The notes: generated by a model from the sequence alone, not told the origin. A stretch of 63,960 nucleotides of DNA, filler included, from Psammoneis japonica (GCA_008632985.1; 7 parts of 7 records of this genome joined end to end with filler, not necessarily neighbours in it), one strand, 5' to 3'. Numbered from the whole stretch's first letter, positions 4,064 to 63,960 are shown. Program-made: numbers and translations.

Positions 4064-4360
4064 GGTCACTACAGCAGGTATAGCAAGCCCAGAACTGATA
4101 GAGGCGCCAGTGGTGACGGGCTCCTGTTGACGGTAATGGAGATACACGTCTTCGGGTAGGTTGGGATGGGTCGAGCCGTAATAAGAGCTGAAGAGAAAAA
4201 AATGGGTTAGTGCCGATACTTCCTGAGCCCGTGGAAAGCGCACGATAAAGGGTGTGACTTACCCGATAAAAATCTCTTAGTTTCTATTGTTAAGAGCGCA
4301 AGTGGTGTCGGCGAGAGCAAGCTTCTTGTTGAACAGTGGTAACATCAAAAGAGGATGTCG
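4059..4360 (-). repeat. Right arm of the inverted repeat; forms the 5' UTR and intron of the Exo1-like gene
   Basis: Reverse-complement match to 1859-2157. GTAAGT donor, CTAAC branch point and CAG acceptor lie on the minus strand. Confidence 0.9.
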
Positions 4361-13203: not shown

Positions 13204-13329
13204 TTGTCCACATAATAGAGAGTAGACTACAGCATGGGAAGCAAGACAGATGGGAAGATGAACTGGCATTTTTTCACCTGGTGTGGGCAGCAGGTTTTGA
13301 TTAACTCGACTCGAGCGAAACGAGAGTCG

Positions 13330-38196: not shown

Positions 38197-38372
38197 CTTG
38201 CACAAGGCCATGGGTGGTCCTGTGGAGCAGTCAAGTTGGTCACGCGGAGGCCATGGGTGATGGCATGGAGTGATCAAGTTGGTTGCACAGAGCCATGGGT
38301 GGTCATGCGGCGCAATCAAAGGTGGTCGCACAGGAGGCCATGGGTGGTTGTGTGGAGCCATGGGTGGTCATG
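38197..38372. repeat. Degenerate ~40-bp tandem repeat (gccatgggtggtc..ggagcagtcaagttggtc), with a further copy at ~38800
   Basis: ccatgggtg recurs at ~38208, 38252, 38293, 38338, 38358 and 38803. Confidence 0.8.
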
Positions 38373-41189: not shown

Positions 41190-44100
41190 AAAATGAGTGC
41201 TAAAGGCTGAGGACATGACCAAGGCAGGGGTGGCAGAGGCCAGAAGTCTTGCCATGACAAGAACAAGAAGACTGACCCCAAGAAGAGCTTCAAGCTGGAA
41301 ATGAAGTTTTGTTGGTGATTGATGAACAGCAACTCGTGCAATTTGATGTTGAAGAAATCAAGGAAAAGATCAACTGCACGCAGAAGGAATGTGATCAAGG
41401 TGTGCATCTGGCAGGTCCCTGGAAGACATGGCAAGCATGATGTTCACTGGTGAGAGTCCAACTCTCTGGCCTGGTGATGGCAATGACAGCAGTGTCAGCA
41501 GAGAGTCAGGTGAAGATTGCCAGATTGAGACAAGCAAAAGGGCCAGACAAGAAAGGCAACTGGAATGTGAGCACAAGATCCAGTTGCAAGACTGTGGCAA
41601 GAAAGTGAAAAGCTCAAAGAAAACAAGAGTGCCGCTGCATTTGTGGTGATCCCAGATGGTGACTGTTCCAAGTTGATGAAGCAGAGAGTGCAACCTGACC
41701 CCAGTCATCAGAGGATCAGAGATGACCCAATCAAGCTGGTCAAGCTGATCCAGTCACTTGTGTTCAACTCCACAAGAGGTTGAGTCCCATTTCACACACT
41801 TGCCAATTGCCAACAAGTCCATGATGCCACACTGGAAGTCAAACAGCTGGAGGACAAGTCACTGAATGACTGCCTGTCAAGATTAAAAATCAACAAGATG
41901 CCAAAAGCAATGGTCTTGGCAGCAAGATGTTGGGTGGATTTGTCAAGAATGCCAAGGAGTGCAAGGAAGGACTGCACTGCAACAGCAAATGAGAAAGCAT
42001 TGGACTTCACCTTGCAAGTCATGATGCAGAAACATGCATTGTGCCTCATTTCCATGCATTGGTGCTGTTTTTCTTGCACAAGTGCAGTGTGAGATTTTGA
42101 GTTGAATGCAGTTTGGGATCTCACAACTTTGGCTCATGGGTGTGCATGGGGCATGCCAAGTGTGCTGTCATCACTGTTGCCACAATTCTGCCTGGGTTTC
42201 TCTGCCACACCTTTTGCATGTTTTTCTGTGCAAGCTCTGGTGGCACAGATGTCACCCTTCTCTGACAATGTGACAATGAGTGGGTGCCACAGATTTGTGA
42301 TGTTAATCTTGGCCAGCTGCCACGCATCCCTGCCACATTGTGTTGGTGTGCTGCGGGTGTGGGTTGGGTTGTTGCCAGAGTTGCAGGGTGGAAACACAGC
42401 AGCATTGTGCAAAAGCATGTGGCTTTGGTGCTGAGTTCAATTTTTGCACCATGTGAAAACTGAACTTCACAACACACACCTTTGCCCAATGAGAACAAGA
42501 AGACTGGCCCCAAGAAAAGCTTCAAACTGGAAATGAAGTTTTGCCCATCATTGATGTGACATTTGAAGATGTCAAGGAAAAGAACAACCATGCACAGAAG
42601 GAGTGTGATCAAGGCATGCATCTGAAAAGGTCTCTAGAAGACATGGCATGTGTGACCTTTTTTGGTAAAAAGCCTGCACTGGCAATGACAATGACAGCAG
42701 CATGCCAAAGGATGATGACAAAGATTGCCAGAAGACAGTGAACAAGAGAGCTCAAGAGGAGACACAGCTCAAATGTGAGGCAACATCAAGTTGCGTGACT
42801 GCAATGAGAAAGTCAAGAAGCTCAAAGAAAACAAGAGCACAAAATTTGCAGCAATCCTGGATGGTTGCTGTTCCAAGCCAATGAAGCAAAGAGTGCGAGC
42901 TGATCCCTCACATGTGAAGATCAGAGATGACCCAATCAAGCTGCTGAAGCTAATCCAGTCCCCCTCATGCTCAACTCCATGGAAGTCAACTGCCTTTCCA
43001 CACTTGCCAAGTCACTGAAGCACATGCTGGAAGTGATGCAATTGGAGGATGAGTCACTGAACAACTGCCTGTCAAGATTTGAGAATCAAAGAGAGGCTGC
43101 AAGCAAAAGTCTTGGCAGTGAGATGCCAGATGTGTTTGTCAAGAACACCAAGCATTGCAAGGACTGCACTGGCACAGTGGATGAGAATGCATTGAAGGAC
43201 ACTGCATTTGAGACATGGACCACATGCCTGTTCTTGGAGAACAGTGATGACTGCTGCCACAAGAGCATCAAGAAGAGCCTTGTGAGAGACTGCAGCCTGG
43301 GAAGGGATTTGCACCCAAAGACCCCAGGGAAGGCAATGGATGTGCCACTGAACCATCCAAAAGACAATGATCTGCACACAAGGGACAGGAGCAAGAAGAA
43401 CAATGAACACCCAAATGACAAATTAGAGGACACGGGCAATGACAAGACCAAGAACCTGCAAGACAAGAATCATGCACAGAGTGACAAAGTGACATGAGGA
43501 TGAGATCCTGGCAGAAGGACTTGCGCAACAAGCCCAGCAGGAAACCAGATGCTGGAGGACTGAGTCATGCACAGAGAAACAAAACAATTGGTCAACAAGC
43601 AGCAACAATGCCAGCATTGATGCCTGCAGGTCAAGCCCATCTGCAAGCTCCAGCAGGAGAGACATTGCATGGCATGGGATCCAGTTAGATGAACAGGCCA
43701 AAGAAGGGCCAGAAACAAGTTTGAACCAAGAAGCTGATGTTGGCATCAAGTCAGATCAGATCATTCTCAATCTGCCCTTGACATGGCAGCAAGCCAGAAA
43801 CTGGTGCACAATGTGCAACCGGCAAGGATCAAGATTGATCTTTCCACTGACACCAAGACTGCACCATGCCAGGATGGGGTGACATGAAGCTTGGGCCACA
43901 GAATGCAGCAGTCAACATCCTCAGTCTCAAGGATGTGAAGAGCAAGCACTGCATGGTGCATGACAACCGAGTGGTGTGCATGAGTTCCATGTCACTGTGT
44001 TCAAAGTCAATGATTGGGCTGCATGCCTCAACACCAAGTCAGCAATTCTTTGACCATGCAGAAGATGCATCTCCAAGAAGATGAGTTGCATGTGAGCATG

Positions 44101-46190
44101 TTGTCAAAGGACAAGAAGGCTGCAAAGAAGATCAGCACAAAGCACAGGAGTGCATTGGGAACTGTTGTTCCAACTGTAAAACAGAGTGTGAATGGCTGCA
44201 CCAAACAAGAGGTGGCAAACACCAAGGAACATTGAAACTCTGATGCAAGGCTGGAACACCCCACAAAGGCAATTTCAAGCCTTTCATGCCATCCCATCAG
44301 GTGAAAACCCATCCATTCTGCCTGAGGATGTGGGTAGAATGGCGGCCATGTGGGGTCCACCAACAGATGCACTCAAAGGCAAGACCAAGCTTGCACACCA
44401 TTTTCACGAGAGAAATGACATCATTGTCACACCACCTGAGATTGCAAGAGGCAGAGAGATGGGTGAACCTCTGCATTGATGTCATGAAGTGTGTGGTGTG
44501 TCGACACTGTGTGCAGTTGACAAGATGATGAAGTGCCAATCAAGTGAGTGAAGTCCAAAAAGCATGATCACATTTACAAAGCCTTGGATGTGATTCTCGG
44601 ACAGCACAACATGGCCCCATTCAAGACAGATTTTGTCAAGTGTGATCCTGAGCTCAAAGACATGCTAGGGAAGTTGCAGATGGTGTGAATCTAGAGCTTG
44701 TCTCTGGCACCAATGCCAAGGACCACATTCCTGAAGTTGAGCAAAGCACTCTGATCATCGGGGAGCAAATCCAAGCCATCATGCATCACCACCACACAAG
44801 TTGATGTGCAAGCAAGCCATGATCAAGAACACTGTCATGTCAAATGTGTGCATGCAAAAGGAAGGGATTTCTGACACTTGCAGTCCTCTCACTGCTGTGC
44901 AATGAAGAAACCCTTGACTTGTGCAACAAACACTTTCAGCTCAGATTTGGGGAACTTGTTGTTTCCAACATCAAGAATGACAAGATGATCACTGTGGAAG
45001 CACATGGTGTTGACAGTGTCTGCCTGCAATCACATTTTGATTTGCCCAAGGGCGTCACCATGCTGTGAACCTGCACAGGATGGGCAAGTCATTGAATTCC
45101 CACAAGTGCACCTCTGTTCCCTTGGCCAACATGCACATTGCAGCTGTCAAGGAGATGGCCATGGGACAAGGCATCAAGGAATTCAAGTTCACAGGGGAAA
45201 TGCAAAGACAATCCACGTGATGTTGATTGGACTGCAGGATGAGTGGACAACTGAAAACAAAAGCAACAGCAATGATGAAAGTGACAATGAAACAAAATCC
45301 CAGAAAGAGAAAACATGCAAACTGCATGACTGAGTCAGAAGCTAAAGATTGCAAAGCTAAGATGACCTGACTCAGATGATTAATGCAAAGAAGCAAATGA
45401 GACATTGGCCAATGAAAGGTCCAGTCCCAGCCAACAGCACAAAGCTCATGAGGAGCAAGAAGTTGAAGCAAGCAAAAACTGCAACAATGAAAGTCCAAAG
45501 AGGTGATGATTCTCTGGATGATGACAGATGGGAAGGACAATGATTGGAGGAAAAAGCAAGAACCACGCCTGGTCAAACCCTGAGAAGCAGTGCAAGCTTG
45601 AGTGCAGCCATCATTTGCATGCCAACATGAGTCCTGATTCAAAGGACAACATCAAATGTGCAAAGCAGAGATGGCAATTGCACTTGCACACTTCATGTGT
45701 GAGGTCGATGACCAACTCTGAAGTGGAGAGGGTGCATGCTCAGCCAGCAACATTTGCTCCATGAAGGCCTCAAAGCATTGGCCTTTGCCCAGAAGAGGCA
45801 TGATGCCTCAGAGAAAGAGACAACCAAGTGTGCTTTGGTGACTCCAACTTCCAACTGAAAGGACCAGCCAAGGCCATGCCAGCCTTGATGTTCCTCGCCA
45901 AGAAACGAGATGGTTGCATGAAAGGACAAATTGTCTGCAATGGCAAACCAACCCAAGAGTGGCCAGATGAAGATGAGTCAGCCAGCCCCACTGCATCCCT
46001 TGAGGGGAGGACATTGATGATGGAATCATTGATGCCCATGAAGGACATGATGAAATGAGTGCTGCATTCCAAATGCATTTGCGCACAGATTGTGATGGTG
46101 CCGGAGCCTGGAGAAGGTGAGGACCACATCAGAGGCTGCAACACAGTGGTGTTTACTTCCTTTTGTCTGATTTGTGACAATTGATGCAAT
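41190..46190 (+). mobile_element. Degenerate diatom-type copia element: two gag copies (~41190-42000 and ~42490-43500), then protease/integrase/RT remnants, truncated in RT
   Basis: NILSLKDVK, EDV..MWGP..ALKGKT, LCIDVM, LMFLAKKRDGCMKGQIVCNGKPTQEW..SASPTASLE (cf. ..KRDG.IKGR.VYNGKPTREW..SPT). Confidence 0.8.
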
Positions 46191-48625
46191 GCAAGTTTCT
46201 CTTTCCTTTTTTTTTACTCTTGCATGCAAGTGTGTTCATGCAGTGTTCAATTCACACATTTTGCATGGATCTTTTTGCTTTTTTTTTGGCTTAATTTTGT
46301 CAATTGATCCAAATGCATCTAGTTTTTGATTTCAGTGCATCACATTTTGACAGCATTGTTGCACTTGTTTTGATGCATTGTCTTTGACAGTGGTTTTCAA
46401 TGGCTCCTCCCCACACATGCACCACCACAGTGGCTGGCATCCCCTCTGCACCCAAGTCACCCCCCTGCGCACTTGCCTCATTGTTTGATCCAGCACTTTC
46501 CAGAATTTCAGTGCATGGCTCTCTACCTTGTTTTTAGTGCATGTTCTACATGCACAATGTTCTGCCTGTTTCATGACAGTCCATGTCCTTTCCCCAAAAT
46601 GCATTCGACCAGAGCATGTGCTGTCATGATTCACGCACTTTCTACATGAATCAACAACTGACTTTTGGCTGTGGTGGTCAACGACTTTACCCCGTCCCAC
46701 GATGAGGTCACCCACCCTTCCTTCCAATTTCCTGATGAGTGTGATTTTGATGAAATGGAACATTTTGCCAATGGTTTTGGAATGGAGTTGTTTGGACCCA
46801 AGCTCAAAAGCATGATTTCAACGCTTGCATCCAAAAACCAGTTTTTGGAGACAACAAATTGGTCCCCCTCTCCAGAGTTCCTCACTCTTCCCTTCCCTTT
46901 GTCACAAGCTAAAGTTGTGTCACATTCCACATGTCGCAGAAGTTGTCCGCACCAACAGTGTTGTCAGGAAAACTCTTGGATGCCCTGACATTTGGTCCCA
47001 CATCATGACCATGGTTGGTCCATGAAGAAATCCAGCACACTGAAAGGTGAGTGTGTTTTTCAATGTCAAAATTTGGAGGAAGCTCTCTCCATTTCTCTAA
47101 AATGCCCGGAGAGACAGAACAAGAAGAGGAGCACCTTGTTTTGCTTTGCCGCAACATCAAGGCAATGGCAGAATTTGTGCACATGGTCGATGGGGACAAC
47201 CCAATGATCCTGTCTCTGGTGAGCCTTGTTTCCATTTTTCATGGTCAAAAATCTCCAAGCATTGATCAACAACCAAGCCCACAACCTTCACGGTGCATGC
47301 TTTGTCACTGACATCATTGTGCACTGCATCCAGTGCAAACCCAAGGACATGGGCTGTTGGTTCATGCAGATTTTTCACCATGTCAACACCCAAAAGGAAT
47401 GGCTCATGTTTGTCAATGGCTTTCTGGTCATGTGCAATTCCAACGATCCAGGTTCCCAGGAGGATGAGATCAAGGGGTTCCTGGAGACAAAATCAGTGAC
47501 ATTGAGAACTCTGTGATGACAGCCAGTGATTCCCTTGCAAGTTGGGAGGCATGCAAAGAAAAAATCAATTCCATGTTGAATCATGAATTTGGGAAGCACT
47601 GTCCTGAGGAGCAACCTGGCACATGACCTGGGTGCAGCAAGCAGCAAAATGCTTTGTTGCAGAATGTGTGATCAGAGGGCTGACTGCCCAGAAGATGACA
47701 ACAAATGAGAGTGCAAATCCCAAATTCAAAATGAGGAGGATCCGCAAAGATGGCACCTGTTTGAATGATGGCAAGCACCCCCCTCCCCCCCCTTTGCCTT
47801 CATTGCCTGCCTGCATCTGTTGTCTCATGGATCCTTTCCCCCCTGATTGTACATGCCCCACCAGAGCCTTCCTTGACCATCCCCAACAAGAAGGCCAAGA
47901 CTGCCATCACACTCAAACCAAGTCCCTCCTTTGTCGTCCAGTGATGTGCCATTGTCCAGGGAGGTGCACCGCACTCTCACAACGGACCTTCTGACATTGT
48001 CAGAAATCATGGATCCAGGAAAACCTTCTTCCCCCCCCAATGTCCTCCCTCCAAATGGCATTTTTCTTGGTTGGGTGTTTCTGCAAATCACTTGGTTGTT
48101 TTGTCTCCTCCCCCTGACACCAGGACATGTTGTGGCTGGACAAGTCTGCCATTTGCCAGCACTTTGACCTGTCCAAGTGTTGATCTGTTGCCTCAGGGGA
48201 AGTTGTCACCCATCTGTCATGCCTGCACATCATCGACAAGGCCACCAACACTGAGTGTGTGCTGCATCATTCCACCACTGACTTTCACCCAGCAGACAAT
48301 TTGCAAGAAAACTGGCACATGTTCTCCAACAAAACTCCCTTGAGCAATCCCACCACCACCTCTTCAATTCTGGAGATGCTGCACAACTAGAGCCAGTCAA
48401 CCTGGAAGAACAGCTGCTCATGCACCAATGGATGTCATCAGAGACCAGGACCAAAGAGCATGGTTGGAATGGAATGGAGCACAAACTGTGTGAGAATGCT
48501 GAGACAATTGCTGCACCCACACATTCGACCATGCATTCCGTGGTCCCTGTTCTGGACAAAACCTGTTCACCTTCTCTCCCTCTGGTCAGCATCTGTGCAA
48601 GGGATGTGGATTCACAGAGCATCAA

Positions 48626-49866
48626 ATGGTGGAGTGCATTGACACCAACCCAAACATGTGCAAGGAATGCACCAGCCAAGTTGCCATGTCAGACATGTCT
48701 GACTTGGTTCCCAGTGGACTTGTTGCTGACAATGAATCTCACTTGTTGGAGAAATCCCACAGTGACAATGACATTGGCAAATCATTGGTTCCCAATGGAC
48801 TTGTTGCTGACAATAATTCAAACTCATTGTCTGGGGAATCTGACAACAATGATGACAGTGATGAATCCTTGGTGAATGATGGGCTTGTGGCAGACAATGA
48901 ACTAAACTCATTGTTGGAGGAATCCTCCATCAACAAATCTGCCATTGACAAAGTTGTTGATGGGTTCAAAGAATCTGAGTGCTGCCTGCCCATTGTTGCA
49001 GGTGAATCAGCAGTCATCCCATCACTGGAACAAAATTTGGATGATGAGGAAATGTGCAATGATCCCATGGACAATCAAGCAAAACCACCAGACCTTTCAA
49101 AAGTGCAAAATTTGGATGTGGAGGCATGCGTGGACACAACCATGTTGCAAGTCTCACATTCGCGCATTGACTCATTCCATTTTCTGATTGTGTCATTTGA
49201 CTCATGTCATGATTCTGGAACCATCTAATGCAAAACTTTTGTGTCACTTTTTTCATCCTCACAAGCAATGATGGAGGTGCAAAAATCCTGTGGCTGTGCA
49301 CGACAAGGCCTGTCAATGCGGGAGAGCTGTCCTTGGATGAGCTTTGTTCAGACTGTGGTTTGAAGGCTGTGCAAGTTGTGAAGGACCTTTGCACCAACGC
49401 CTCTGTTGAGGCATGCATCCTCTCTCTGCAGGACAGAAGTGCCACACACCACCCAAATTGCAACATTCATGCCAAGGATTTTGTTGATCATGTGAAGTTG
49501 CAATTTGGTGGTGAGATTGATTTTAAGAAGAGTGGATTTGTTCAAATTTGCATGGACTGCTGCTGGATGCAATGAGGGGAGTGGCAGCAAATGTCATTTG
49601 GAGAATGCTTTTTCCACAAAAACCTCAAAGAGATGATGAAATCTTTGTTGCATCCAAAGCTTGAAAGGTGCCACATCACAGTCCCATGCAACCTGTGGTC
49701 CCTTGCCCAAGCTGTGCGCAGCTGGAGCACACAGAAGAATGTGTGCTGGTGCTTGGTGTGACCGAGGAGATGGCATGTAACAAAGTGACAATTTACCAGG
49801 CATCCCTTGAAATGGAGAGCAGGACAGGGGTGATTGGCTTGGAAAACCATCCAATCAGGAAGCCCT
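48626..49866 (+). pseudogene. Degenerate ORF with three ~82-bp GLVADNE repeats, followed by a possibly Mutator-like transposase remnant
   Basis: Repeats at ~48706, 48787 and 48871. HAKDFVDHVKLQFGGEIDFKK loosely resembles the MuDR pre-catalytic region. Confidence 0.3.
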
Positions 49867-49966
49867 NNNNNNNNNNNNNNNNNNNNNNNNNNNNNNNNNN
49901 NNNNNNNNNNTTAATTAATTAANNNNNNNNNNNNNNNNNNNNNNNNNNNNNNNNNNNNNNNNNNNN

Positions 49967-50465
49967 TCGCCACCTTTCGTCCACGCGTCGGTCAATATGC
50001 GACGAAACCTTGAGACGGGAAAAGAGTGCAAGTGCATTCGTCACTCTTGAAAAAGGGGCACGGAAGTTCTCCAACGCCACTTTGTTGGTTCGCGTCTTCA
50101 TTTTTTGATTGAATCGCGCAATAAGATCCACCGACTTTCACCGCATTTGACACGTAATTGTTGAAGCACTCGATGCAGAACGAATGCCGGGATTTGCCGA
50201 TGCATTCTACGGTCTCTTGTTTGGGTTGCCTGTCGCCGCAAGTGACACATGCTGTAAAAGACATCTTTGTACACTTACTGTTGTCGTCACTATTTTTGCT
50301 ACTAGTTGTCTTTTTAATGGATGGAAACGCCTTTAACCCAATAAAGCATTCGGAGCAGAACGCTTGGTCCCGCCCTCGCGGACCGTGATACGTCACAGCC
50401 GCTGGCTCTGAGCAAACGGAGCATAAAGCTGTTGTGACGCTCATCGTCGTAGATATTGCCGTCAT
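49967..50465 (-). CDS. Zinc-finger/RING (RBR RING1-like) protein, 3'-truncated by the contig end
   Basis: CSVC..CSEC, then CVTC..C..HSFCIECF..LPCP; normal TA content. Confidence 0.6.
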
Positions 50466-51266
50466 GATGACTACGATACAAGTCACGTTGTTTAATGGCT
50501 GAGTGCTTTTTGTGGCTTTGTAGATGTAAGTTACGCAACGAAACGTGCACTTTTTGTGACGAGGAGTCAGTCGTACCGGCACATCAGAAGCACGACTCAG
50601 AATGATGTCATGTCGGCATTTTTGTGCATGCGGCTCATTACCTTAACTTTTTCCGTACCCACGCGGTTTCGCGCGATTGCCCTATTTAAACAAAATTTTC
50701 AATTATGAAGAATACCAACATAAATAACAAAACTTTTCTATTCAAATAAATACAAATAAATGTGTGCTGTTTCGACCGTGACAGTTTTGTCTAATGGCAT
50801 TACAAGCCCTAGGACAGACTTTGGACCTGTATATTGGACAATTGCGAAGAGATCCGTGCCCGGAATACATCTGAATGGACTAGGGCAATAGAGTGCAAAA
50901 AAGTGACGGACAGACGCATGCATACTGGGGACGTATGTACCGGTAGACACCATGGAAGAGTGACTTTTGGCGATAATTTCCGAAATCTTCGGTCCTATTC
51001 AAAGTTTTGCATGTTATGCATAGGTTTTGTCAGCAGGGCTGTGCACCCTGCTTCATAAGTGTCTAAACTAAATGTCTATGGGTCGAAATGTGTTAAGCCG
51101 AGTCATTCTTCTGAAGCTGCTGACAAAGAGGAAAGGCAACATTTTCTATTCAAATAATATAACACCAGGAAATATGTGATTAAATATATAAATAATAATG
51201 AAATAACAATTACACTTGAGTTAATTAGAGAAAATACCGGGACAAAAAATTTTGTCCCGCGGGCAC

Positions 51267-52801
51267 CTAAAAAGTTAAACTGCCCAGGGCCCTCTCTCTG
51301 TTAAAGAGCAGCCAGCGGTGGCCTCTGTCCAAGGTCAGAAATCTCACTTCATCATTGCTGGATGAGAACCGAGAACCAAGAAAGTCCAAGCCCCCCATCA
51401 GCGGCTGAGCTGTCTTCCATTTTGTGCCGCACAAAGAAGTTTTGACTGGCCTTTCGTGCACAGCATGAGTGCCATTTGCGTGACCCATGCGTTGTGCGAC
51501 AACCAAAATGATCACACAGTCAAGCTGGTGCATCGGGGGGGGGGGCGAATTTGGAATCCCCCACCGGCTGATGAGCAGATCACTGTCTGGGAAAAAGGTG
51601 TGTGAGGAGTGTGAGCACGCAAATTTGTTTGTGACAAATCAGTCCAACTTGTCACAAATCACACCTGTTCGTGACAAATGGATGTGATTTGAAACAACAA
51701 ACGTCTTTTGCTTCCCAATGAACATCCAAGTTTGCAAATCAAGAGCAGGCCAACTTGGCAAATTTGGCACGAATCAGCAAGTTGATGCCAACAAAGCACT
51801 CCATTTGATGTTTGCAGTCAACTGCTGACTGAGAATTGATTGGCTGACTGATGTTTTTAAATGACTGATTTGTGATGTGCTGCTGCAACTCATTTTCAAT
51901 CTGTCGTCTAAAATGCAGTTCTACAGTGGGGCACTGCCATGTGATCTGCCATCGAACAATGCAGCTGCTGCCATTTGTTTTTTGTCCACTGAGCTGCTGT
52001 CAACCACCAAGCTGCCATCAACTCCAGTTTGCGTGTCTTTGCACAGTTTGCCATGTGGTCTCCCTCATCATCCAGTTCATTGAGTTCTTCTTCCACTTCT
52101 TTTCTGTGGTTTTCCAGAGTCATCCTCCCACTGTGCAGCTGTCCTCCCATTGGCCAAGCCACCCATTCTCAACCTCTTGTTTGATGTCCATGCAATCCTT
52201 CCTTGAAGAAGTTGTTTGCCCTTGGTGACCCCCTTTGCTCTTTCTTGGCATCTTTCATCACTGCTTCCCACTGCCTGCACCTTCCTCCATTGCATTTGAG
52301 TGGCCAAACATGAAGTGCTTGAGCCATCTCATGTGCACTGTCTTTTTTTTATGAGTTCCTTGCTGGGTGGTCCCCTGTGGTGGTCGAGCTCATTCATGAC
52401 TTCTGTCAAAGCAAACAGCCAGTCCTTTGTTTTCTGGAGGGAGAAGCACCAGAGCCAGAACTCAATGTCAAAGAAGAGGATCAGACTTGGGGATTCAAAA
52501 AGTCTGAGTTGGGAGTGAATGGCTGAGGGTGGGCTGGGGAACAGAGGATTGGCTGTGAAATGAATCAGGTTGAGGGAGAGCTTTTGCCACCCAGATGATC
52601 AGTGTTGATGCCATGTTTTGAGCAGGATGTGATGAGAAAAGCACATCAGTTTCTAAAAGTTGTGGTTCTCCATTGTCAGTCTGCAAGTTTGGGGTGCTGC
52701 TTTTTCCTCTCTTTGCTGAACCATCAACTCTGTGGCACACCCAGTGCAGATGCTGGCAGCTCAAATTGATTCTCACTTTTGGTTTGAACAGCCCCAATTT
52801 T

Positions 52802-52832
<31 letters not shown>

Positions 52833-53183
52833 GCCAGACAGCAGAGTGATGAGAAGACTGGAGCTGAAACAAACACTGAACTGCTGCCCAACCTGAAGGG
52901 GAAAGAGGGCGGGAGGGTGCTTCAGACAGCCAAGTTGCCTTTCCCACATGATTTCTCATGGGTGGCATGCCTGCACACACACCCCTCATGGAGGAGTCAC
53001 CAGCCCATCTCCCCTGCCTCCATTCTCCTCCATTCCAGTTTTGCACAGGTGTGGCAAGTGGGTGAGGGAGCTTCTCTTCTTGACAAGAAACAGTCTGGCT
53101 GTTGTGTGCTGTGTGTCAACAGAATCCAGCAATCTGCTTGGCTCCAGTGCTCTCACTGTGTGTGCATGGCAGACAACAGAGTG
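51267..53183. mobile_element. Unclassified TA/CG-depleted repeat, preceded by hairpin gggacaaaaaattttgtccc (51239-51258); contains (CT)14 at 52804-52831
   Basis: Abrupt switch from TA-rich to TA-free sequence. Confidence 0.55.
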
Positions 53184-53283: not shown

Positions 53284-55219
53284 ATCTGAAGGCAAGGTTC
53301 AAAAAGAGAGAAGAGGACGCTCGAATCGAAGTAAGGATCAGAAGAGTTCATCCCGCATGTTGTAAGGAAAGCTTACAGAACTCACTTTGTTGCTCTTGCG
53401 CGCTTTTCTGCTGTAGGCAGAGAAGAAGGTAACGGTCAAGTACTCTGTACACCGACCAATTGGGCGAGTCGAAGTGGCGGTGTACCGAGGAAGAAATATC
53501 AGATCGAGAGACCTCGGTTTGACTGGTAGCGTTGGTTGCCGGGTTTATTGGGATCCACTCAGATACCAGAATGACGCTGCCAAGGAAGTAGTGGTTACAT
53601 ATGATAAGGCGGCTAGCAGGACACATGACATTGCATTCACAAACTACCAGTATTCGCAGAATCCAGTTTGGGATGAATTCACAGAGAGCAACGAGACAAG
53701 ACGTCTGAAACAGCTTCTTCCCGACGATGGCTTGTTTTTTGAAAGAGAAAAACCAAGGTTGAGCCATTCAACCAAAGTAACTGGCGACACGGTCCATTTC
53801 CCTGTGTTGCAGCCAATCACGGCTGTCCGGAAAGCCAAACTTGCCGGCGGAAGCGAAGCACCTGAGGGAAGCTTAAGCGTAGACGCTTGGAATCGCTCTG
53901 GCGGCGCCGTCGTTGTGCAAGTAAATTTTCGCGACGTTCTAAACAAACTGCCTGGCTTCGATGATACGCTGGGCGAGGTTTCTATTCCTTTAAGGCAGCT
54001 CGTAGAAAAAGGAGAGATTCAGGGCTGGTACCACATCCTTGATACGGGCAGTACTGACACTGTTGTTGGCGACTACAAAGGCGAGCAGGACACCGCGTTT
54101 CCCGGGGATCCGTCTACATATAGCGACAGGATTGCGAAGGATGAGATTTCTGCAAAAGCCACAACAGAATATCCGCAGTTGTACCTGAAAATGAGATGGG
54201 ACCCGCCGATCGCCGAGGTCTCAGACACGGATCGCGAAGCGTCAGTTGTCGTTGCGGAAGAGTTGATTCGGTCCGCGGTAAACTCCAGGGATAAAATGGA
54301 TTTCATTGGAAGCTCAATTGGTGCGATCAATACTGTATGGGGGTTGGGCGGAAATGTCCAGTTTATCCAAAACACTCTCGGTACAATCTTGGACGCTATT
54401 GAGAAGATTCGAAACGCATTCAATTTTTCGGTAAGTTAAGATTGAATTGATCTGAGGCACCATCGATTGAAATTGTTCTCATTTTATGTAATTGCTTTGA
54501 TTATAGGATCCGATCAAGTCTTCGATTTTGCTTCTTGCCTTGTTTGCGCTATGGTTGTTTTTGGCTCTAGTGCCCACGAGAGCATTGGTTCTGGTTGCGG
54601 GGTCGGTAAGTGGGAGGCCTCGCTTGTGAGAATCTTTTCATGTTTATTCTTTTCACATCTGACGATACGCCCCGGCAATGTTCGAAGGCTCAATACATTG
54701 CTACATTTATTGCAGCGTACGGCCCTTCGTCAAAAGCTGGCGACGCTTCAGAGAGAAAATCAGACGAAGAGGAAAGCGATGGCAAGAACGATGGTGATGG
54801 CCCTTTATTTCTGACTTGGATATCGAACGCTTTCAGATCACTGCCAACCGACGAAGATCTTCGAAGGACGTATTTCTGGGAAAGTTGCAGGCTTGGCGAA
54901 CGTGAAAGCCAGATACTTGTAAGTTTATTCTGATGCAGCGATATGAAAATGATCTCTACTATGCAGTGGAATCTCAAACCAACTTGTCTCTGTGACATCG
55001 TAATATGCGATAGGCTACCAAGAAGCGAGAGTCGCGGTTGCGTCGATTATGGAAAGCCGAATGGTATGGCTCACTTAAGATCAAGGTCAATAGTAGCAAA
55101 GGTCCTCATTTAGAAGGTCGTGGTTGGGAGTGGGTGACAGCATTTGCAATGGTCCAAGGCCGACGATTGTTGTGGTGGCGCGGTGTCTACGATTTCGACA
55201 ATGGCGAAGCCCCTTTAGG
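53284..55219 (+). CDS. Internal fragment of a C2-domain / PRT_C (MCTP-like) membrane protein; four introns (~53332-53416, 54431-54506, 54605-54688, 54919-55013)
   Basis: AVYRGRNI..DDTLGEVSIPL..GWYHI (C2). IQNTLG..EKIRNAFNFS|DPIKSSILL.. and FRSLPTDEDL (PRT_C-like). Confidence 0.75.
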
Positions 55220-55319: not shown

Positions 55320-58060
55320 AAGTCTCTTTGTTGTGTTGTCTGGACAAGCAGTCAGACCAGGGACGCGGTTGTTGCTCAACAAATGACATGCCACAAACTC
55401 TGGGTTTGTCCAGCATTTAGTGCAATGAGGGCAATGCGCGAACATGCCGTTTTTTGATTTCTGACCGTGCTTGTGCCTTGGGCATCGAAGCTGCTGATTG
55501 CTGACCATTTTAGGCACAGCACGACAGGCAAGATTAACAGTGCAATCATGATCAAAAGTCTCTATGATGGACAGTCGAGTGCAATCCTCGCTGCACATCA
55601 ACCCAGTTGTGCAGATCCGACTGGTCAGTTTGGATGGTGTTCTTTTACCATCACGCCTAAAATCTCCATTGTCAGAATGCAGATTGTCTCTTGCTGTGTT
55701 TGTGTCTTCAAACCATGCCTGAATGTGACCGTGCACCGAGAGTCTGCCTTGTTCTTCCATTGCAGCTATGAAAGCGGAGGGTCTCCCTGTGTAGAATTCA
55801 AAATCTTCTCTGGGTGAATTCCTTTTTAAGTCCCATCCTGTCACTTCTTCCATGACGATTTCCAACAACATTTCGAATGCAAAAGCCATGACACCCGGGT
55901 GCTCCACACGAAGCTCGTTTCTTGCCTTGGCCTTTTCGGTCAATTCTTCATCCGACATTTCTGTCACATCTCTGCCTTCGTCGATGAGCATGTCCGCATA
56001 AATTTGAACTAAAAAGGAGCTAGCATCATCGGGGCTTGTCGTTAAAAATGCTCCAGGTTGTCCAAAGTGGTGTTGGCAGGTTTCAGCATTTCTTCTCATT
56101 TTTTTTGCTGCTTCATTTGCATGTGGAATAGATGCCGACACCACATCCACTGCACTTAAGAAACGATGTCCCAATGCGCAATTCCTGCATTCACCGGTCT
56201 GTCTGTCACATGTGGCACGGTCGACATCGTCTTGTGTCAGTTCATTTGAGAATTGTCTGGCTTGATTTTTGTCTCTTACTTTCCATCCAGCACTGTGCAC
56301 CATTCGTTGCTTCACAGTCAGATTGCACAGGGTCAGAACAAAGAGTTGCTTGTGGAAATGGGGCTGAGAAATGCGGGCCAAGTGATCTGCGCAATGTGCT
56401 AGATTTGTGCAGTCGCGAGACTCCCGTCTTCTTTCATTCTTGTTTCATTAACACCGCCACGCCCACAAGGAAATTGCAGCAAGCAAGCATTTGCCAGGTT
56501 GTCATCCTTAAAGTCACTGACTGATTCTTTCAAAAGGTCAGCTTTGAATTCAATGTCAAAACCGCTTGCAGCTGCATCGTGCACCAAGTCTTTGAAGCTG
56601 TCTAAATTGCGTTGTCCACCAGTTGTTGAAGAAACGGTGCCATCGGGGAAACAAACACTGCAGGACTCCGTGGTTTCAATGTTTGCATTTTCGCTTTCGT
56701 CTGAACTGCTGTTGTCCACTAAAACTGGATTCTGCAAATTACTTCGCACTTCCTCTAGATCGATGTCTTGATTCATCCAATTCTTGTGGTGATGGACAAG
56801 CCATTCTAGTGCTCTCATCACATGGTGAGTCCTGATTTTGTTCTTTTGTCTGGCCATTCGCCTTTGCTCTGGTGTCATTTTGCCGGATGCCAACACAACC
56901 ACATTTTGATGAAGGTTCAACACGTCAAAGTGCATGATGGTGCGGGCGATGCTCTTTGTGTTTATCTTGCAATGGGAAAGACTGCCTTGCAGTTTCTTCT
57001 GTTTGCCGCCGACAAAACTGAAGCAGCAGCCACATGTTTTCACAGGTGTCAACAAAGCCAGTTCTGCTTCGGCAAGACACGATAATTCAGGTGGTGGTGT
57101 TCCAAAACAGCAATTGTTTGCTGTTGCGCATGGAGGCATAGAAGCAGTGCAGAGACTTCTTTTACAAGGCCTGCAACAAGTGAATCCTTCAGACCTTCTG
57201 TTGTCGTTCGGAACAATGCATCGAGCTCTTGGCGAAAGTGACAGGTCGGAAATCCATCAGCAATCCCGTGGAACATGGTCGTCATCGATGCGATGACAAT
57301 CGTGCAGGTCTTCCGACACTTGGTTCCATTCAGATGGAGTTAACAGGTGTCTGGCTTCATTCAATCTGTTGACAGAAAGTCGAGCAGTCTGAGACGGTTT
57401 TAACAATCTGTCACACACCAAACAAACCCAAGGGACGCACTCGTTTCCATTCCTGCAACAAAGCTTCTCAAAACGTCTGTTCACATTGTCTCGGTGCCTG
57501 GTGTTGCTGTCATCCACAAGACAGCTTGTAACGGCAGGCTCACACTGCGCAAAGATGAGTTGAACCAACAACGCAGCAACAGGTGCACACCAGATAACAC
57601 GACGACCCATGAGACTTGCAATGAGAATGATCTGAGTAAAGTCAATATGATCAATAGATGGCAGATGATCCCACCTGCAACTGGTGTTCCCAGTCACTGC
57701 AGGGTCCACTTCCAGTGTTTTCTGGACTCAGCAGACGAGTGTGTGTAACAAATCTTCAGTGTGTCAAGAGTGCAATGAACAAAAATGAATGTGAAATGAC
57801 AAATCTGCAACCGGTGTTTCCCGGTCTCTGCAGACTCTGCGACCAGTGTGTTCTGGTCCCCGCAGATGTTGTCTCAGCTGCAACTGGTGATGCTTTGTGT
57901 CGAGATGGCTGGAGAGTCTTCCTTTGTAAAAGTTCAGATCTCATGAAAAATGAGGGTTGAAGCAAACTTCCGTGCATGATTGACGGACCCGACACGTTGT
58001 AGATCGTTCGTCTCGATTTGCTTGACACGTCATCGTTCGCTCGTGCGTTCTGCATTGGGA
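55320..58060 (-). mobile_element. Helitron-like Rep-helicase gene, N-terminal part, frameshifted and TA-depleted
   Basis: VCLVCD, PPPELSCL.EAE, VMRALEWL, LQFPCGRGG (=FPYG), FGQPGAFLTTSPDD and EEQGRLSVHGHIQAW (HUH motif). Confidence 0.85.
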
Positions 58061-58599
58061 TGCACTGCTGACAGCAGCGGCATCACACCGGTGAGGTTAT
58101 GAACGTCAGCGGAAACACATCTTGTGGAAGTTCAATGTGCGATGATGCATCTCGTAGTTGAAGTCGGTTCCACCCACTACGACTGTACGACGTTTGTACG
58201 ACCACGACGCCTCACATCTCGATCCACTGCCAAGTGCAACAGATGTGTGTTGTTGCAGTGTATCCTTGTGATCGGCACGTTCCTTTCATCCCACTTGTGA
58301 ATCATGTCGTCTTGCAGTGCATGTACTGACATTGAACCATTCGAGTGAAAAGATTCCAAATTTTAGAAAGATTTCCAGCCACACCTTTCTTTCGTACAAT
58401 TTTACGTAGCCCATCACACTGGTCCTTCTTTCCCACGTCTCACAGTGGAAATTGTGCGTGACATGAGTGACGCACCTGCACGACCGTCACTGGGCCTACA
58501 CGACCGCTGCTGTGTTAGCTCTTCGTGGGAGCTCAGTGACTGGTGACCTTGTTTTTGGCTCACAATTTTGTGCTGATCAACAACGTAAGACTTTGTAAG

Positions 58600-59469
58600 A
58601 TGGCCCATAAAACGCGAGGTTCTGCCAAGAAGTTGGACGCTTCTCCAACCAAGAAACAGCAGTCTCCCGTCAAGTTTTCTGCTTCCCTCATGAAAAAAAT
58701 TACCCCTGCCAAGACCGTTGGTCTCAATGATGAAGACATGAAGGCCGAAGATTTGTTGGCCAAGACGGGCATCAAGGTTGCGAAGGTGTCTGGTGGCACA
58801 GCAAGCGACACTGCCAGCAAGGATGCTAATTTACGAGTGGCCAAGATCACCGAAGGCAACAAGCAAGGCTTGGCATTCCGTTTGGAGCCCAGGGGGACAG
58901 GCAACCCCTCCGGTGCATGGGCAGAGAAAGTGTTTTTTGATGCCATGCGCTCAGGCAAGTCTTGGGTTGCCAATTCAGGGTTTGTGCCGCACACCAAGCA
59001 GTGGTGCCATGACAATGTGTCGATGAAGAATGGAAGGGATTGCTCCATTCGTCTCTTCGTGATTTACATCGAGGAGACCCCGTCCGATGAACAAGTCAAG
59101 ATGTTGGCCAAGTGCGTTGCTGCCAAGTTGAGCAACGACCCGGACAACAACACTGCCGCTCACATTGAGGACGACTGCATCTGGATCCAGGATGGTGTGT
59201 GGGCCGATGTGATTGGCAACGACCAGGCTTTAACGGAACTCCGTAAGGAGGGTGGTGACTTCCACTTAGGATGGCACGAGCAGCACAAGAACTTGCTTCA
59301 CAGTTGCCTTCGAACGGGAACCTTGCCCATGGATTTCTGCCGCGTGATTGGTGCTCCAGCAGACGAAGCGGCTGAGGATCTTGATGAGGAAGATGGGGTG
59401 TTGCACGATGACCAGATGTCTGATGACGAGGAGAACGACTTGCTGCTTTGCGACACCGACGAGAACTGA
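58600..59469 (+). CDS. Unknown protein divergent from the Helitron Rep gene; probable Helitron accessory gene, partly TA-depleted
   Basis: Open 289-codon frame with a basic N-terminus, acidic tail and only one Tyr. Confidence 0.55.
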   Translation: MAHKTRGSAKKLDASPTKKQQSPVKFSASLMKKITPAKTVGLNDEDMKAEDLLAKTGIKVAKVSGGTASDTASKDANLRVAKITEGNKQGLAFRLEPRGTGNPSGAWAEKVFFDAMRSGKSWVANSGFVPHTKQWCHDNVSMKNGRDCSIRLFVIYIEETPSDEQVKMLAKCVAAKLSNDPDNNTAAHIEDDCIWIQDGVWADVIGNDQALTELRKEGGDFHLGWHEQHKNLLHSCLRTGTLPMDFCRVIGAPADEAAEDLDEEDGVLHDDQMSDDEENDLLLCDTDEN

Positions 59470-60585
59470 GAAGTTTTTCCCCGGTCTGGCCTCCGCTCTT
59501 TAGTGCGTTGTACAGCATGTAAATGTTTAGTCCATTTAATCAAACATTTTTTTATTTACTTGACAAGTGAGACTTGCATTGCGCGCGACTGTGGCAAATC
59601 GTGCACATTTAAATTATGCATTTGTCAGTCATTGAATGCTGCATTCGCAGCCGGCTCGTTTTCTGCATGATTTCAAAATCAATTGGCATTCGTGTCTTAA
59701 TCATTGTGTGTGTCTCTTTTCTGACAGTGATTTCAAAATGTCATGTGTTTGGCCTGCCTGACTTGCATTTCCGGTTGTTTCCGCAAAGTCTGCTTTTCAA
59801 ACTTTGTGCCAGTGCACACAATTCACCAAATGAGACTGCGTCACCAATGCACGGCCTCAGCATGGTAGTGAGTTAGTGATGAAGCCATCCCACTAAGAGA
59901 CCCAGCCCGGTGTTCATGCCTCAGACCCATCTCCTCTGGAGACCAGTCCACTGTGGCACCAGTGTCGCGGTTGATCTCATTGGGTCACTTTTTGCTGCTC
60001 CTTGCCGATTGTAGGGTGCCGATTGTGAGGTGCGCGGNNNNNNNNNNNNNNNNNNNNNNNNNNNNNNNNNNNNNNNNNNNNNNNNNNNNNNNNNNNNNNN
60101 NNNNNNNNNNNNNNNNNNNNNNNNNNNNNNNNNNNNNNNNNNNNNNNNNNNNNNNNNNNNNNNNNNNNNNNNNNNNNNNNNNNNNNNNNNNNNNNNNNNN
60201 NNNNNNNNNNNNNNNNNNNNNNNNNNNNNNNNNNNNNNNNNNNNNNNNNNNNNNNNNNNNNNNNNNNNNNNNNNNNNNNNNNNNNNNNNNNNNNNNNNNN
60301 NNNNNNNNNNNNNNNNNNNNNNNNNNNNNNNNNNNNNNNNTGGGGTGCAGGGCACAGCAATTGCAGGGTGCGGTGAGAACCGCACAACTCACCGGCACCA
60401 TGAAAATGTGATGTGTCAACACGGCAAGGGATGCTGATGAAGTGGTCCCACATGAGGACCCAGCACACTGTGCCTTTCCCTGTCGTGTGTGTTTTGAGTG
60501 TGCAGCAGCATTGCCGCATGCTGCAGTTGTGGCCGTTGCTGCCGGAGGCTGGGAAAATTTTCTTTTTTTTTGAACAAATCCCCCC

Positions 60586-60869
60586 AACATGTGATGCGTG
60601 CAAATCCTGCATGTCGTTCCTCATGGCCCCTGTCAATGGCTTGTTCGTTCGTGTGTGCAACACACATGCGGAGTGCAACAGGGAAAAGATTCCTCTGTGC
60701 GGTGTGCAGCACAGCATTGGTTTAACATGTGACACAGCACTGTGCTGTGCGTGCAAATCCTGCAGGTCGTTCCTCACAACCCCTGTCAATGGCTCATTCG
60801 TTCATGCACACAAGACACACACGGAGTGCAACAGGGAAAAGATTCATGCGGTGTGCCACAGCATTGGTT
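60586..60869. repeat. Two-copy ~150-bp tandem repeat
   Basis: gcgtgcaaatcctgca..gagtgcaacagggaaaagattc..cacagcattggtt at 60596 and 60749. Confidence 0.9.
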
Positions 60870-61285
60870 GATGCACGACACTGGATGAAAAAAAAAACAG
60901 CACCATAAGATGTGCCATGAGTCACCCCAATCAGTCCGGCAAAGACAACACCACCCTTGCGTTGCTTGGGAAAACGGTCGCTGTGAAAACAAGCTCCAAT
61001 TGTGGGGGTGGCTTCATTCACACCTGCAAGGCTCAGACGCCTTCTTCGTCGAGAGTTGCGGCACTGGCACATTTGACAAACAGAGAACCCGCAGCTAACG
61101 AAGGCAAGTGGTCTGCTGAAAAGATGATGCATCGAGCCAACAAAAAGGCTGCAAAGATCGAAAGTCTAGAAGAACTGCCTGCACANNNNNNNNNNNNNNN
61201 NNNNNNNNNNNNNNNNNNNNNNNNNNNNNTTAATTAATTAANNNNNNNNNNNNNNNNNNNNNNNNNNNNNNNNNNNNNNNNNNNN

Positions 61286-62528
61286 CCAAATTTGTTGTGA
61301 TTGCTGCTGCTTGTTGTCATGCAGACAATCTTGTGACATGCTCTTCTTTGCCTTTTTGCAACCCCGAGGCAGGCCCCAGACAACCAGCTGTGAAGGGGCG
61401 CGCTCTTCATTTTCTTTGCATGAATGAGTGGTTTCACCACACCAGCGTCATTTGAGCAAGCTGCAAAAAGGCATTCTCAAAAATCAAAAAGACAAACAAA
61501 CACCCAATTGTTAAAATTTCTTTGCCACTTTTGATGACAACCCCAACCCCAACCCCAATTTAAGAGCAACAAGTGAGCTGAAGAAAAAACAAATTTTAAT
61601 TTTAAAACGATTGGTTGACACTGAGTCTTGCACCCACAAATTAAAAAAAACCAATTGCAAGTGCAGGTCAAAATTTAAAAAATTAATTTTTGCATCACTG
61701 AAAAATGGGTTAAAACAACAAAAAACAAAGAAATTCCATCGACCTCGCACTGCTGAACTGTGACATCAACAGTTTTTTGGATCGCGTCGCATGTCGCGCA
61801 CGTGCATTTCCACGTGTGACATTCTACGAAATTGTTTCATGCTCCCTGTTTTGCAAAGCCAAAGGCTTTCTATTTTCAACATTTGTGAGAATGAAAATGC
61901 ACTGGGTGTGTTCTTTAATGTCTGAAGAACACACCCGGGCAAACTGTCAATGGTGTGCTGCAAGCATGAAGGAGGAGATGCATTCGCAAAATTGCCTCTT
62001 TTTCTGTTGGCGATCACACCCATTTTCATTGCAGCACAAATTTGCTGCAGAGCTTGCACGCAGAATTCTGTGGGCCCAATGTCACACGGAGTCCCACTTG
62101 GGACTGGAACCCATCTGCAGCTGCCTTGCAGTGGGAGCAGAGCAACAGCACGAGCTGTGCACACAGCTGACTGGTGGGTGCAAGCAGCGCTGAAACCATC
62201 TCCACTCTGCTTTGATGAGTGTCCAGTTTTTTTTTTGAGGTGGATGGCACTTTTTTCCTGGGGTCAGCATGCACCGCAGTAAAATCTTGCTGCTTCTGCT
62301 GAAAGAAAATCACCCCTGTCCTTCAATGATGCTTGTTTGAACAGAATCAAGCCAGCTCTGGTTTTTGCTGCCAAACCAGCAACTTTGTCAGCCAGCTGGT
62401 TGTGATGGCATGCTTTTGCATGGCGCAACCATCCCAGCCTCAGAGCAAGTGTTGGGAGGCAAGTGCACAAGCACCTTGGAGCGGTGGCCAACAATGCAGC
62501 TGCTGCACTTGCAGTTGTTGCCCACATC
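61286..62528. mobile_element. Unclassified TA-depleted repeat contig
   Basis: Remaining TA is almost only in TTAA-type runs. Confidence 0.5.
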
Positions 62529-62628: not shown

Positions 62629-63960
62629 GGAGTAGAGTCGTCCCTTGACAGCAGGGAACTTGAGCCAAGGGGCTTTCTTCCGGACTTTCCGTTCGGATGG
62701 TGTGCAGACATTGCGGACCCCTGCCTGGGTCATCACTCTGATGGTGTTCTCAGCAGCCGTCAGGCCAATGTTCCACCTTTTAGAGAGTGTCTCGGGCGTG
62801 ACAGTTGATGCACGACTCAAGGTCGACAGTGCATGCACCCGTTTCCGCTCGGCACAATCCAGGTGGACATCCAGGTCATGCCGGTCGTGTGGCCCGTCTC
62901 CCTCGGTGTCGTTGTGGGAGACATTCACCTGAGCAACCATGCGGCGATGCAATGAATTGTCGTCATCAGTGTCCACAATGACGCTCTCGTCATGACAGGA
63001 CATTTGGTGTGAATGAATGGAAGCAACACACCTGGTCACATTCATTGTCGTCAACCATCCGCCCGACTTTGCTGATCCTTGGCGCACACTGGCACATGCA
63101 CGCGCTTCCTCCTTTTGCGCCATGGCATCAGCAGAAGGCTCCCATCTCGGGGGTGATGTGAGTTCCAGCCGGGGGAGGTTCTCCAGATCCTCATTTGTTG
63201 GCTCGTGTGAATCAAAGACAGAAGCAACGCCTCTTGTTCGCAGTGGCACCCTGATCTTCAAGTCAGGGAAAGCAATGGAGTGCGCGCCAGTCGGATCAAA
63301 CTGGCAAGGGGTGTCGTGGACAATCAGCCCATTTGCTCGCAGTTGGTTGGGGCACAGAAGGGTGTTGGTCATCTTGTCCCCAAAAAACATGGCCTCGTGG
63401 ACTGGCAGCAAGCACGGTTGTCCATCAGTTGGATCAACCCACACGGCAGCAGCCGCGCAAACAGGAGTGTTTTCCATTGGCGCGTGCTCTTCGGAGTGGG
63501 GGTGCACCACGACAGTTCTGTCGATGTCAGAGCACATCACAAATTGGACCCAACAGCACACGTGTCAGCGTGCGAGTCTAAATCAGTGGTGGCTTCGTCA
63601 TCTGAATTTCCAGCAGATGACAAAGAGACACAATCACATCCTTTGAGAATCACCCAGACAAACAAACAGTGCCAGCAGGTTTAGCGACATTTGGTTCTGT
63701 GCCTTTCAGTGCTGGCGCAACTGTTCATTCCTCATTCTGAGGTTTCTCATGTGCGCTGCATCCAAACTGGGTGCCTGCATTGGCGGCAGGTTCGTCAGGC
63801 TCGTCGGAGTCTTTCGGTGCATCAGCAGGTTGAGCAGCAGGCTCGGCAACAGCCGCTTTCTTTACAGCGAGAGTTTCGGCATCGACCGACTCAGCTTCCA
63901 AGGACACAGCAGCAGCTTTGCATTTCTTTTTGGCCTTCTTGGCATCGCGGAGCTTTGGAC
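62629..63960 (-). mobile_element. Diatom-type copia gag end / protease / pre-integrase region, TA-erased but CpG-rich
   Basis: AANAGTQFG, DLDSHADTC, FFGDKMTNTLLCPNQLRANG, ELTSPPRWEP, TPETLSKRWNIGL. Confidence 0.85.

Follow-up and report, generated by a model that had tools for sequence, protein, structure and literature searches.

Loss of TpA ahead of CpG in transposon-derived tracts of the diatom Psammoneis japonica points to two transition processes with shared targeting

We analysed a 63,960-nucleotide stretch of DNA from the diatom Psammoneis japonica (GCA_008632985.1), hereafter the window, which consists of seven contigs of one assembly joined by N44-TTAATTAATTAA-N44 linkers (1-22640, 22741-49866, 49967-53183, 53284-55219, 55320-61185, 61286-62528, and 62629-63960). 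It holds host genes, transposon remnants, and tracts in which the dinucleotides TA (TpA) and CG (CpG) are depleted, and our starting point was its last contig, a 1332-bp fragment of a Ty1/copia-like element. The sequence-only reading of this DNA had described the fragment as nearly devoid of TA while keeping dozens of CG, and the counts bear this out, with 5 TA, 70 CG, 109 TG, and 147 CA. At the observed/expected (o/e) ratios of host DNA, 42.7 TA (Poisson P = 4e-13) and 98 CG (P = 0.002) would be expected, and the minimum TA count in 2000 mononucleotide shuffles was 47. The five TA that remain lie at 62633, 62781, 63579, 63682, and 63863, and stop triplets are fewer overall. The excess of CA over TG on the strand shown was considered as evidence and dropped, given that this skew lies inside the host-gene range and host genes vary as much.

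The fragment's 312-aa open frame had no match in a Pfam search, and 11 relatives of it were found in public data. Two metagenomic relatives, L006 and L009, run on downstream into an rve integrase core and then RVT_2; because this is the domain order of Ty1/copia polyproteins (protease, integrase, RVT_2), the copia label is right, and the contig is, as judged from its relatives, a Ty1/copia fragment. The frame is collinear with its relatives and contains neither stop nor frameshift. Of the six columns with consensus Tyr among seven homologues, four are His (CAC) in the fragment, one is Cys (TGC), and one is still Tyr, so that the conversion of Tyr positions claimed from the sequence is found at five of six. 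Consensus Arg is held in eight of nine columns, five of them as CGN codons. TA poverty is not a trait of the copia family, because none of 80 metagenomic copia-family loci has a TA o/e below 0.3 (range 0.36-0.90). Four of the metagenomic relatives (L050, L041, L051, and L076) have CG o/e of 0.34-0.52 with normal TA of 0.79-0.82 (0.34 and 0.80 in L050). These four, from other hosts, have undergone simple CpG decay in which the TA process had no part; this suggests that the TA process is specific to certain hosts.

The copia fragment is one member of a series of tracts and elements (Table 1). In the 33.9 kb of non-tract DNA that served as the baseline, o/e was 0.63 for TA, 1.00 for CG, and 1.15 for both TG and CA. 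In the tracts, for which low TA was the selection criterion, 12 of the 16 dinucleotides are unchanged; only TA and CG, which drop, and TG and CA, which climb to 1.7-1.96, deviate, and G+C stays near 0.48. Depleted tracts combine TA o/e of 0.06-0.24 with TG/CA of 1.5-1.9. The copia frame at the start of the window, with 25 TA against 49.2 expected (P = 1e-4) and 111 CG against 114.6 expected, is an early stage, TA being about half lost and CG intact. The Helitron stretch 55320-60037 (TA o/e 0.24, CG o/e 0.71) is intermediate, and the 16.7-kb tract, whose ratios were computed over 33158-49895, is saturated. The sequence-only reading had arranged the DNA in this same series, and the series holds, with its stages lying on separate contigs of one assembly. 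Within the 16.7-kb tract, CG declines towards the right from 33.2 to 36 kb.

Table 1. Transposon-derived and duplicated features of the window, with their dinucleotide ratios or basis of assignment
Feature	Coordinates	Strand	Ratios or basis
Copia reverse transcriptase (RT)/RNase H open frame, cut by contig end	1-1533	+	Pfam RVT_2 at 5e-34
XPG-gene fragment duplicate beside copia element (parent 4066-4360)	1859-2153	-	TA partly converted, CG not
Short hypermutated tract flanked by host genes	13224-14691		TA o/e 0.10, CG o/e 0.29; no Pfam match
Saturated tract, 16.7 kb	33158-49866		TA o/e 0.06, CG 0.18, TG 1.94, CA 1.74
Second copia-type RT remnant, in saturated tract	45804-46055	+	Relatives carry RVT_2
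Saturated tract at contig end	51236-53183		TA o/e 0.06, CG o/e 0.20
Helitron contig, intermediate stage	55320-61185	-	TA o/e 0.22, CG o/e 0.69; many genome copies
Short repeat contig	61286-62528		TA o/e 0.13, CG o/e 0.39
Ty1/copia-like element fragment	62629-63960	-	TA o/e 0.07, CG o/e 0.70
Open frame, 312 aa, copia protease-to-pre-integrase part	62629-63564	-	Homologues P0001-P0011, alignment, codon table

The tracts contain copia, Helitron (Helitron_like_N and DUF6570 frames at 55320-57256), and RT remnants, as well as one host-derived duplicate. Their edges are sharp and adjoin host genes of normal TA. At 33.16 kb, where a pseudouridine-synthase gene has its ATG 170 bp away, TA goes from one every 10-30 bp to just three over the following kilobase; similarly sharp edges lie at 13.2, 14.7, and 51.3 kb, and the intergenic host DNA adjoining the tracts is TA-rich. 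Between the first copia element and the XPG gene, positions 2001-3000 have a TA o/e of 0.41, a CG o/e of 0.78, and a TG+CA of 1.58, and the process seems to reach past the transposon proper there. Tandem copies in this interval (2416-2722 and 2605-2896) differ by five swaps of CA for TG, nine TA-type changes, 11 CG-type changes, and 23 transversions.

Because the tracts had been picked by low TA, we also classed 126 usable 500-bp windows without selection. TA and CG were both low in 34 of them; 10 were TA-low with intermediate CG and three TA-low with normal CG, whereas none was CG-low without also being TA-low. These 13 cases against zero in the reverse direction, all within this stretch, agree with the earlier claim that TA saturates first. 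The XPG duplicate supports the same order as a polarised case: it has TG or CA at eight of the 18 TA of its parent (reverse direction, 2 of 11) and at only one of 16 CG (reverse, 1 of 14). Together with Tyr codons changed to His or Cys and Arg codons changed to Gln, it also upholds the view that TA and CG both convert to TG/CA. With host ratios taken as the start, the apparent log-loss ratio of TA to CG ranges from 2.4 to 23 in tracts that are unsaturated, against about 1.4 where both losses have saturated.

The bases flanking the surviving dinucleotides separate the two losses. Surviving TA in the tracts falls into 100 YTAR, 74 mixed, and 12 RTAY sites (R, purine; Y, pyrimidine), compared with 236, 754, and 423 in host DNA (chi-square 147, p = 1.5e-32) and 3082, 8282, and 5451 in the 80 copia-like loci (p = 1e-36 against the tracts). 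By next base, TAA is enriched 2.2-fold and TAG 1.2-fold among survivors, while TAC is down to 0.65 and TAT to 0.26; the process therefore prefers T-A-pyrimidine, which is purine-T-A on the other strand. Surviving CG in the same three classes has no such bias (131, 313, and 142 in tracts vs 431, 1012, and 442 in host DNA; p = 0.92). That the context bias is found in TA alone argues for two distinct processes, as the two clocks of the sequence-only reading had implied. Outside the tracts, an inverted duplication (26644-27491 and 30676-31717) flanks about 3 kb, with protein-level similarity weaker further out. Its 262-bp core, 94.7% identical and not TA-depleted, has 14 mismatches, eight at CpG, none at TpA, and no CA-for-TG swaps; given that this repeat changes at CpG and never at TpA, CpG transitions occur without the TA process. 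The targeting, on the other hand, is shared, since TA and CG losses fall in the same tracts and their ratios over the 500-bp windows are correlated (Spearman 0.76). The proposed independence of TA loss from CpG decay is thus only half right: the processes appear distinct, but they strike the same DNA.

Comparison of individual copies indicates how these changes arose. We placed k-mer contigs of sequencing run X1 on the Helitron contig at a likeness of at least 80%. The 640 pieces that aligned mark the family as highly repeated. Its other copies depart from the one in the window by a transition at 184 places (A>G 55, T>C 47, C>T 41, G>A 41) and by a transversion at 11, which, with the sharp edges beside TA-normal host genes, favours the active rather than passive process that had been suggested. 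The 27 listed events comprise 12 adjacent CA-for-TG swaps, four sites with TG or CA in the window and TA in other copies, two with TA in the window and CA elsewhere, two with CG in the window and TG elsewhere, and seven others. The swaps imply that copies mutated independently, one ancestral TA or CG having been hit on opposite strands. In the saturated tract, the paralogous pair 42492-43194 and 41260-42002 has 23 such swaps among 163 mismatches, where adjacency by chance would give roughly one to three, and 59 transversions, leaving a transition:transversion proportion of about 50:59 at the remaining sites; a tandem pair at 60.6-60.9 kb has five swaps among 15 mismatches. Both strands are hit, since TG and CA rise about equally in the tracts, and the TG:CA skew per 500 bp is no larger there than in host DNA. 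Nothing from runs X2 and X3 aligned to the Helitron contig, and a blastn and tblastx self-comparison of the window recovered no pair of mutated and unmutated transposons, only short duplicates.

The saturated tract retains little that can be recognised. None of 158 stop-to-stop frames of at least 60 aa from 33.2-49.9 kb (54 plus 104 of the 106 shorter frames listed) had a significant Pfam family, and metagenome copia polyproteins matched the window at 1-1434 and 62.6-63.65 kb and nowhere else. The second RT remnant has three Arg-to-Gln changes (CAA) and one Tyr-to-Cys change (TGC), and its longer relatives carry RVT_2. At 45921-45962 it encodes the peptide KGQ(CAA)IVC(TGC)NGKPTQ(CAA)EW; this mutated form, already noticed in the sequence-only reading, is the only one in the window, while the unmutated consensus KGRMVYNGKPTREW is carried by 12 aligned relatives of 124 found. 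Elsewhere in the tract, 39501-41000 (+) is a C-/T-rich block (up to 197 C per 500 bases) with long Pro/Cys/Leu-rich frames. In the converted tracts (35500-49866, 55320-60037, and 62629-63960), TAA and TAG each fall from about 20 per kb, counted on both strands, to about three, TGA rises from 33 to 44-55, nearly all stops left are TGA, and frames on both strands are lengthened.

Contigs 1 and 2 otherwise carry intron-poor eukaryotic genes, including those for ClpP, a sugar transporter, an NSF-type AAA ATPase, XPG, an ankyrin protein, and pseudouridine synthase. The top named matches of the AAA protein are raphid pennate diatoms (Seminavis robusta 66%, Nitzschia inconspicua 64%, and Cylindrotheca closterium 63%), with centric diatoms at 56-58% and the top unnamed match at 72%. 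Six host proteins had no exact counterpart in the protein collection searched. The sugar-transporter gene lies in two overlapping plus-strand frames (7643-8713 and 8392-9612, covering Sugar_tr profile positions 2-196 and 182-450), the split being either a short intron or a frameshift. A run of 18 N at 39007-39024 is flanked by 132-bp sequences (38876-39006 and 39032-39163) that are 99% identical, probably an assembly overlap left unclosed.

The closest known parallel is the TpA hypermutation of the chlorarachniophyte Bigelowiella natans (Mettrop et al., 2026; bioRxiv 10.64898/2026.01.13.699255). According to the main text of this preprint, 15 mutation-accumulation lines yielded 302 nuclear mutations, of which 231 lay within two insertions, one from a giant virus and one from a virophage. 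Of these 231, 230 were A->G or T->C changes, every one of them at TpA, and the rate was about 6e-7 per site per generation, about 1000-fold above background, in just 11 and 6 lines. By our own arithmetic, this rate with 3.3% TpA corresponds to roughly 1e-5 per TpA per generation. The main text also gives 210 of 211 mutations at A:T and a Rho_TpA of 0.45 for the nucleocytoplasmic large DNA virus (NCLDV) region, describes 124 TpA-poor, CpA+TpG-rich clusters in the genome and an enrichment of TpA-poor coding sequences in reverse-transcriptase and DDE Pfam families, and proposes an ADAT2-like adenine deaminase (bioRxiv 10.64898/2026.01.13.699255). Both systems thus share the change from TpA to TpG/CpA, the confinement to discrete selfish or foreign regions, and TpA-poor clusters rich in CpA and TpG. 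However, the host here is a diatom (Stramenopiles) and not a rhizarian, the targets are copia, Helitron, and a host-gene duplicate instead of giant-virus and virophage insertions, and depletion reaches about 90%, compared with the Rho_TpA of 0.45. The diatom case is known from its sequence signature, whereas the B. natans rate was measured in mutation-accumulation lines. CpG is lost together with TpA in the diatom tracts, while the words CpG, retrotransposon, and copia do not occur in the preprint's main text, nor does that text report a preference for RTAY over YTAR. The co-localised later CpG loss and the RTAY-over-YTAR order are new relative to that main text.

We consider it likely that, in this diatom, transposon-derived and duplicated DNA is subject to two transition processes, both operating on genomic DNA and both confined to the same tracts with sharp boundaries. 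The first would be a fast, context-dependent change of TpA to TpG or CpA (A:T to G:C), fastest at RTAY and slowest at YTAR, which would level off with about 90% of TA gone and would be of the same kind as the TpA-specific hypermutation of B. natans. Its leading candidate would be enzymatic deamination of adenine in TpA to inosine, read as G. The second process, slower and without flanking-base bias, would turn CpG into TpG or CpA and is most simply explained as 5-methylcytosine (5mC) deamination in methylated repeats; CpG loss may thus be a separate process on top of TpA hypermutation, and one silencing mark could supply the shared targeting. Because the first process would outrun the second, young copies would be TA-poor but CG-rich, like the copia fragment, while old tracts would have lost both and ended as TG/CA-rich DNA of unchanged G+C. 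The deaminase TadA natively targets U-A-C, and Y-A-C was the context preferred by early adenine base editors. By analogy, these contexts fit the T-A-Y preference of the tracts, which the 3' G preferred by ADAR would not match.

A single defence system, in which one deaminase or complex deaminates A in TpA and C in CpG with CpG as the poorer substrate, appears unlikely to us. It would explain why the losses of TA and of CG coincide exactly in the tracts they affect, with a host CG o/e of 1.00, and why CG loss is only 2-23 times slower than TA loss; moreover, amphioxus and Trypanosoma ADAT2 deaminate both A and C in DNA, as cited in the B. natans preprint (bioRxiv 10.64898/2026.01.13.699255). 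However, one enzyme accords poorly with a strong context bias in surviving TA and none in surviving CG, with the absence of a CpG component in the B. natans NCLDV region, where all but one mutation was at A:T, and with the inverted repeat outside the tracts, where over half of the changes are at CpG. The adenine and thymine routes to TpA loss are inseparable here because TpA is self-complementary, which makes A->G and T->C indistinguishable in our data. Modification of T in TpA, for instance to 5-hydroxymethyl- or 5-formyluracil mispairing with G and giving T->C, is therefore compatible with the counts, and dinoflagellate DNA has its hydroxymethyluracil mainly at TpA and TpC. Yet the preference for TAT and TAC over TAG and TAA resembles the U-A-C context of TadA-type deaminases, and our analysis holds no evidence for modified T in diatoms; we judge the thymine route improbable.

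An origin in RNA or reverse transcription, whether ADAR-like A-to-I editing or RT errors fixed on integration, could draw on the fact that two of the affected elements are retrotransposons and that ADAR favours U before the edited A (bioRxiv 10.64898/2026.01.13.699255). It is contradicted by the Helitron and the host-gene duplicate, and the unidentifiable tracts are affected as well. Because no RNA genome exists for the Helitron and the gains in TG and CA are about equal, with Tyr codons of the copia fragment changed on either strand (CAC four times, TGC once), we regard this origin as effectively ruled out. ADAR is also not known outside animals. Passive neutral decay, or a compositional habit of the element family, without any targeting, is very hard to credit, even though TA is under-represented in host DNA too: the intergenic DNA beside the tracts is TA-rich, no relative among the 80 is TA-poor, transitions and transversions stand at 184:11 in the Helitron against about 50:59 elsewhere in the old pair, and the 312-aa frame is still intact and collinear although five of six consensus Tyr are gone. 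A sequencing or assembly artefact, such as modified bases miscalled in methylated repeats, is scarcely conceivable even with reads from one sample, given that frames are free of indels and that run X1 contigs reproduce the family with copy-specific states (CA in one copy, TG in others), which excludes a context-determined miscall.

Several points weigh against the proposal of two targeted processes. The 262-bp inverted repeat has diverged to 94.7% identity without any TA change. The XPG duplicate has 20 transversions beside only eight TA losses, so the TA process can be weak locally. The 13 windows in which TA is lost first stem from about four elements and are a small sample, and the reasoning assumes that the tracts began with the dinucleotide content of host DNA or of the family. 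Event types are known for 40 of the 195 Helitron variant places, which make up the 27 events, and the run X1 reads come from one sample that is probably the assembly source and not an independent replicate. Finally, the TA:CG ratio of about 2-23 is far below what TA loss at the B. natans rate combined with ordinary 5mC decay would give; this implies that TA loss comes in episodes or that CG loss, too, is accelerated. Episodic TA loss, akin to the burst-like process of the sequence-only reading, may be the case here, as the B. natans lines, with hypermutation on in some and off in others, suggest by analogy.

Other known systems match parts of the signature. In fungal repeat-induced point mutation (RIP), C changes to T mostly at CpA, creating TpA and lowering G+C (PMC2621366). 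The diatom process resembles RIP in being transition-only, at the DNA level, confined to repeats, and transposon-inactivating, and in hitting a duplicated host fragment as well; unlike RIP, it destroys TpA, gains CpA, and leaves G+C unchanged at about 0.48, and the tracts do not have RIP composition. As for homology-dependent targeting, the 262-bp repeat at 94.7% identity is untouched. CpG decay driven by 5mC is like the second process in its products, its lack of flanking-base bias, and its confinement to repeats, but accounts for only half of the signature. Animal ADAR and APOBEC editing likewise produces clustered transitions in selfish elements, with U or T before the edited A, but these enzymes act with strand bias on RNA or single-stranded cDNA, whereas both strands and DNA transposons are hit here. 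APOBEC contexts are TC and CC, and the C changes in the tracts are at CpG instead. In the diatom Phaeodactylum, all LTR retrotransposons tested were methylated, and preliminary bisulfite data for the one locus checked, the element Blackbeard, place the methylation in CpG context (PMC2806351). DNA methyltransferases of diatoms have been discussed in passages that name RIP only as a fungal process (PMC9998398).

Our literature search returned no report of TpA hypermutation in diatoms, and TpA-directed hypermutation is so far reported from one chlorarachniophyte in one preprint. The diatom case would add another major lineage of the SAR group (Stramenopiles, Alveolata, and Rhizaria), the second, and would bring in ordinary transposons. 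Given that diatoms are ecologically dominant and include transformable model species, the responsible enzyme would be open to genetics, and the RTAY-first, YTAR-last order provides a fingerprint for screening candidate deaminases. The TA-before-CG order could serve to rank insertions by age without a consensus sequence. Converted tracts evade domain searches, as in the 16.7 kb without a significant Pfam match, and carry few TAA and TAG; both features can mislead gene and repeat annotation of diatom genomes, gene callers included. More tentatively, we hypothesize that diatoms and chlorarachniophytes share an old genome defence, a possibility we hold to be doubtful but worth stating, in which a candidate TadA/ADAT2-like DNA adenine deaminase with T-A-Y preference would be guided to silenced, CpG-methylated repeats and, together with 5mC deamination, would erase both self-complementary pyrimidine-purine steps, leaving invaders TG/CA-rich and with few TAA and TAG stops. 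If this is true, the YTAR residue and the TA-before-CG order would form a built-in, two-hand clock for dating insertions.

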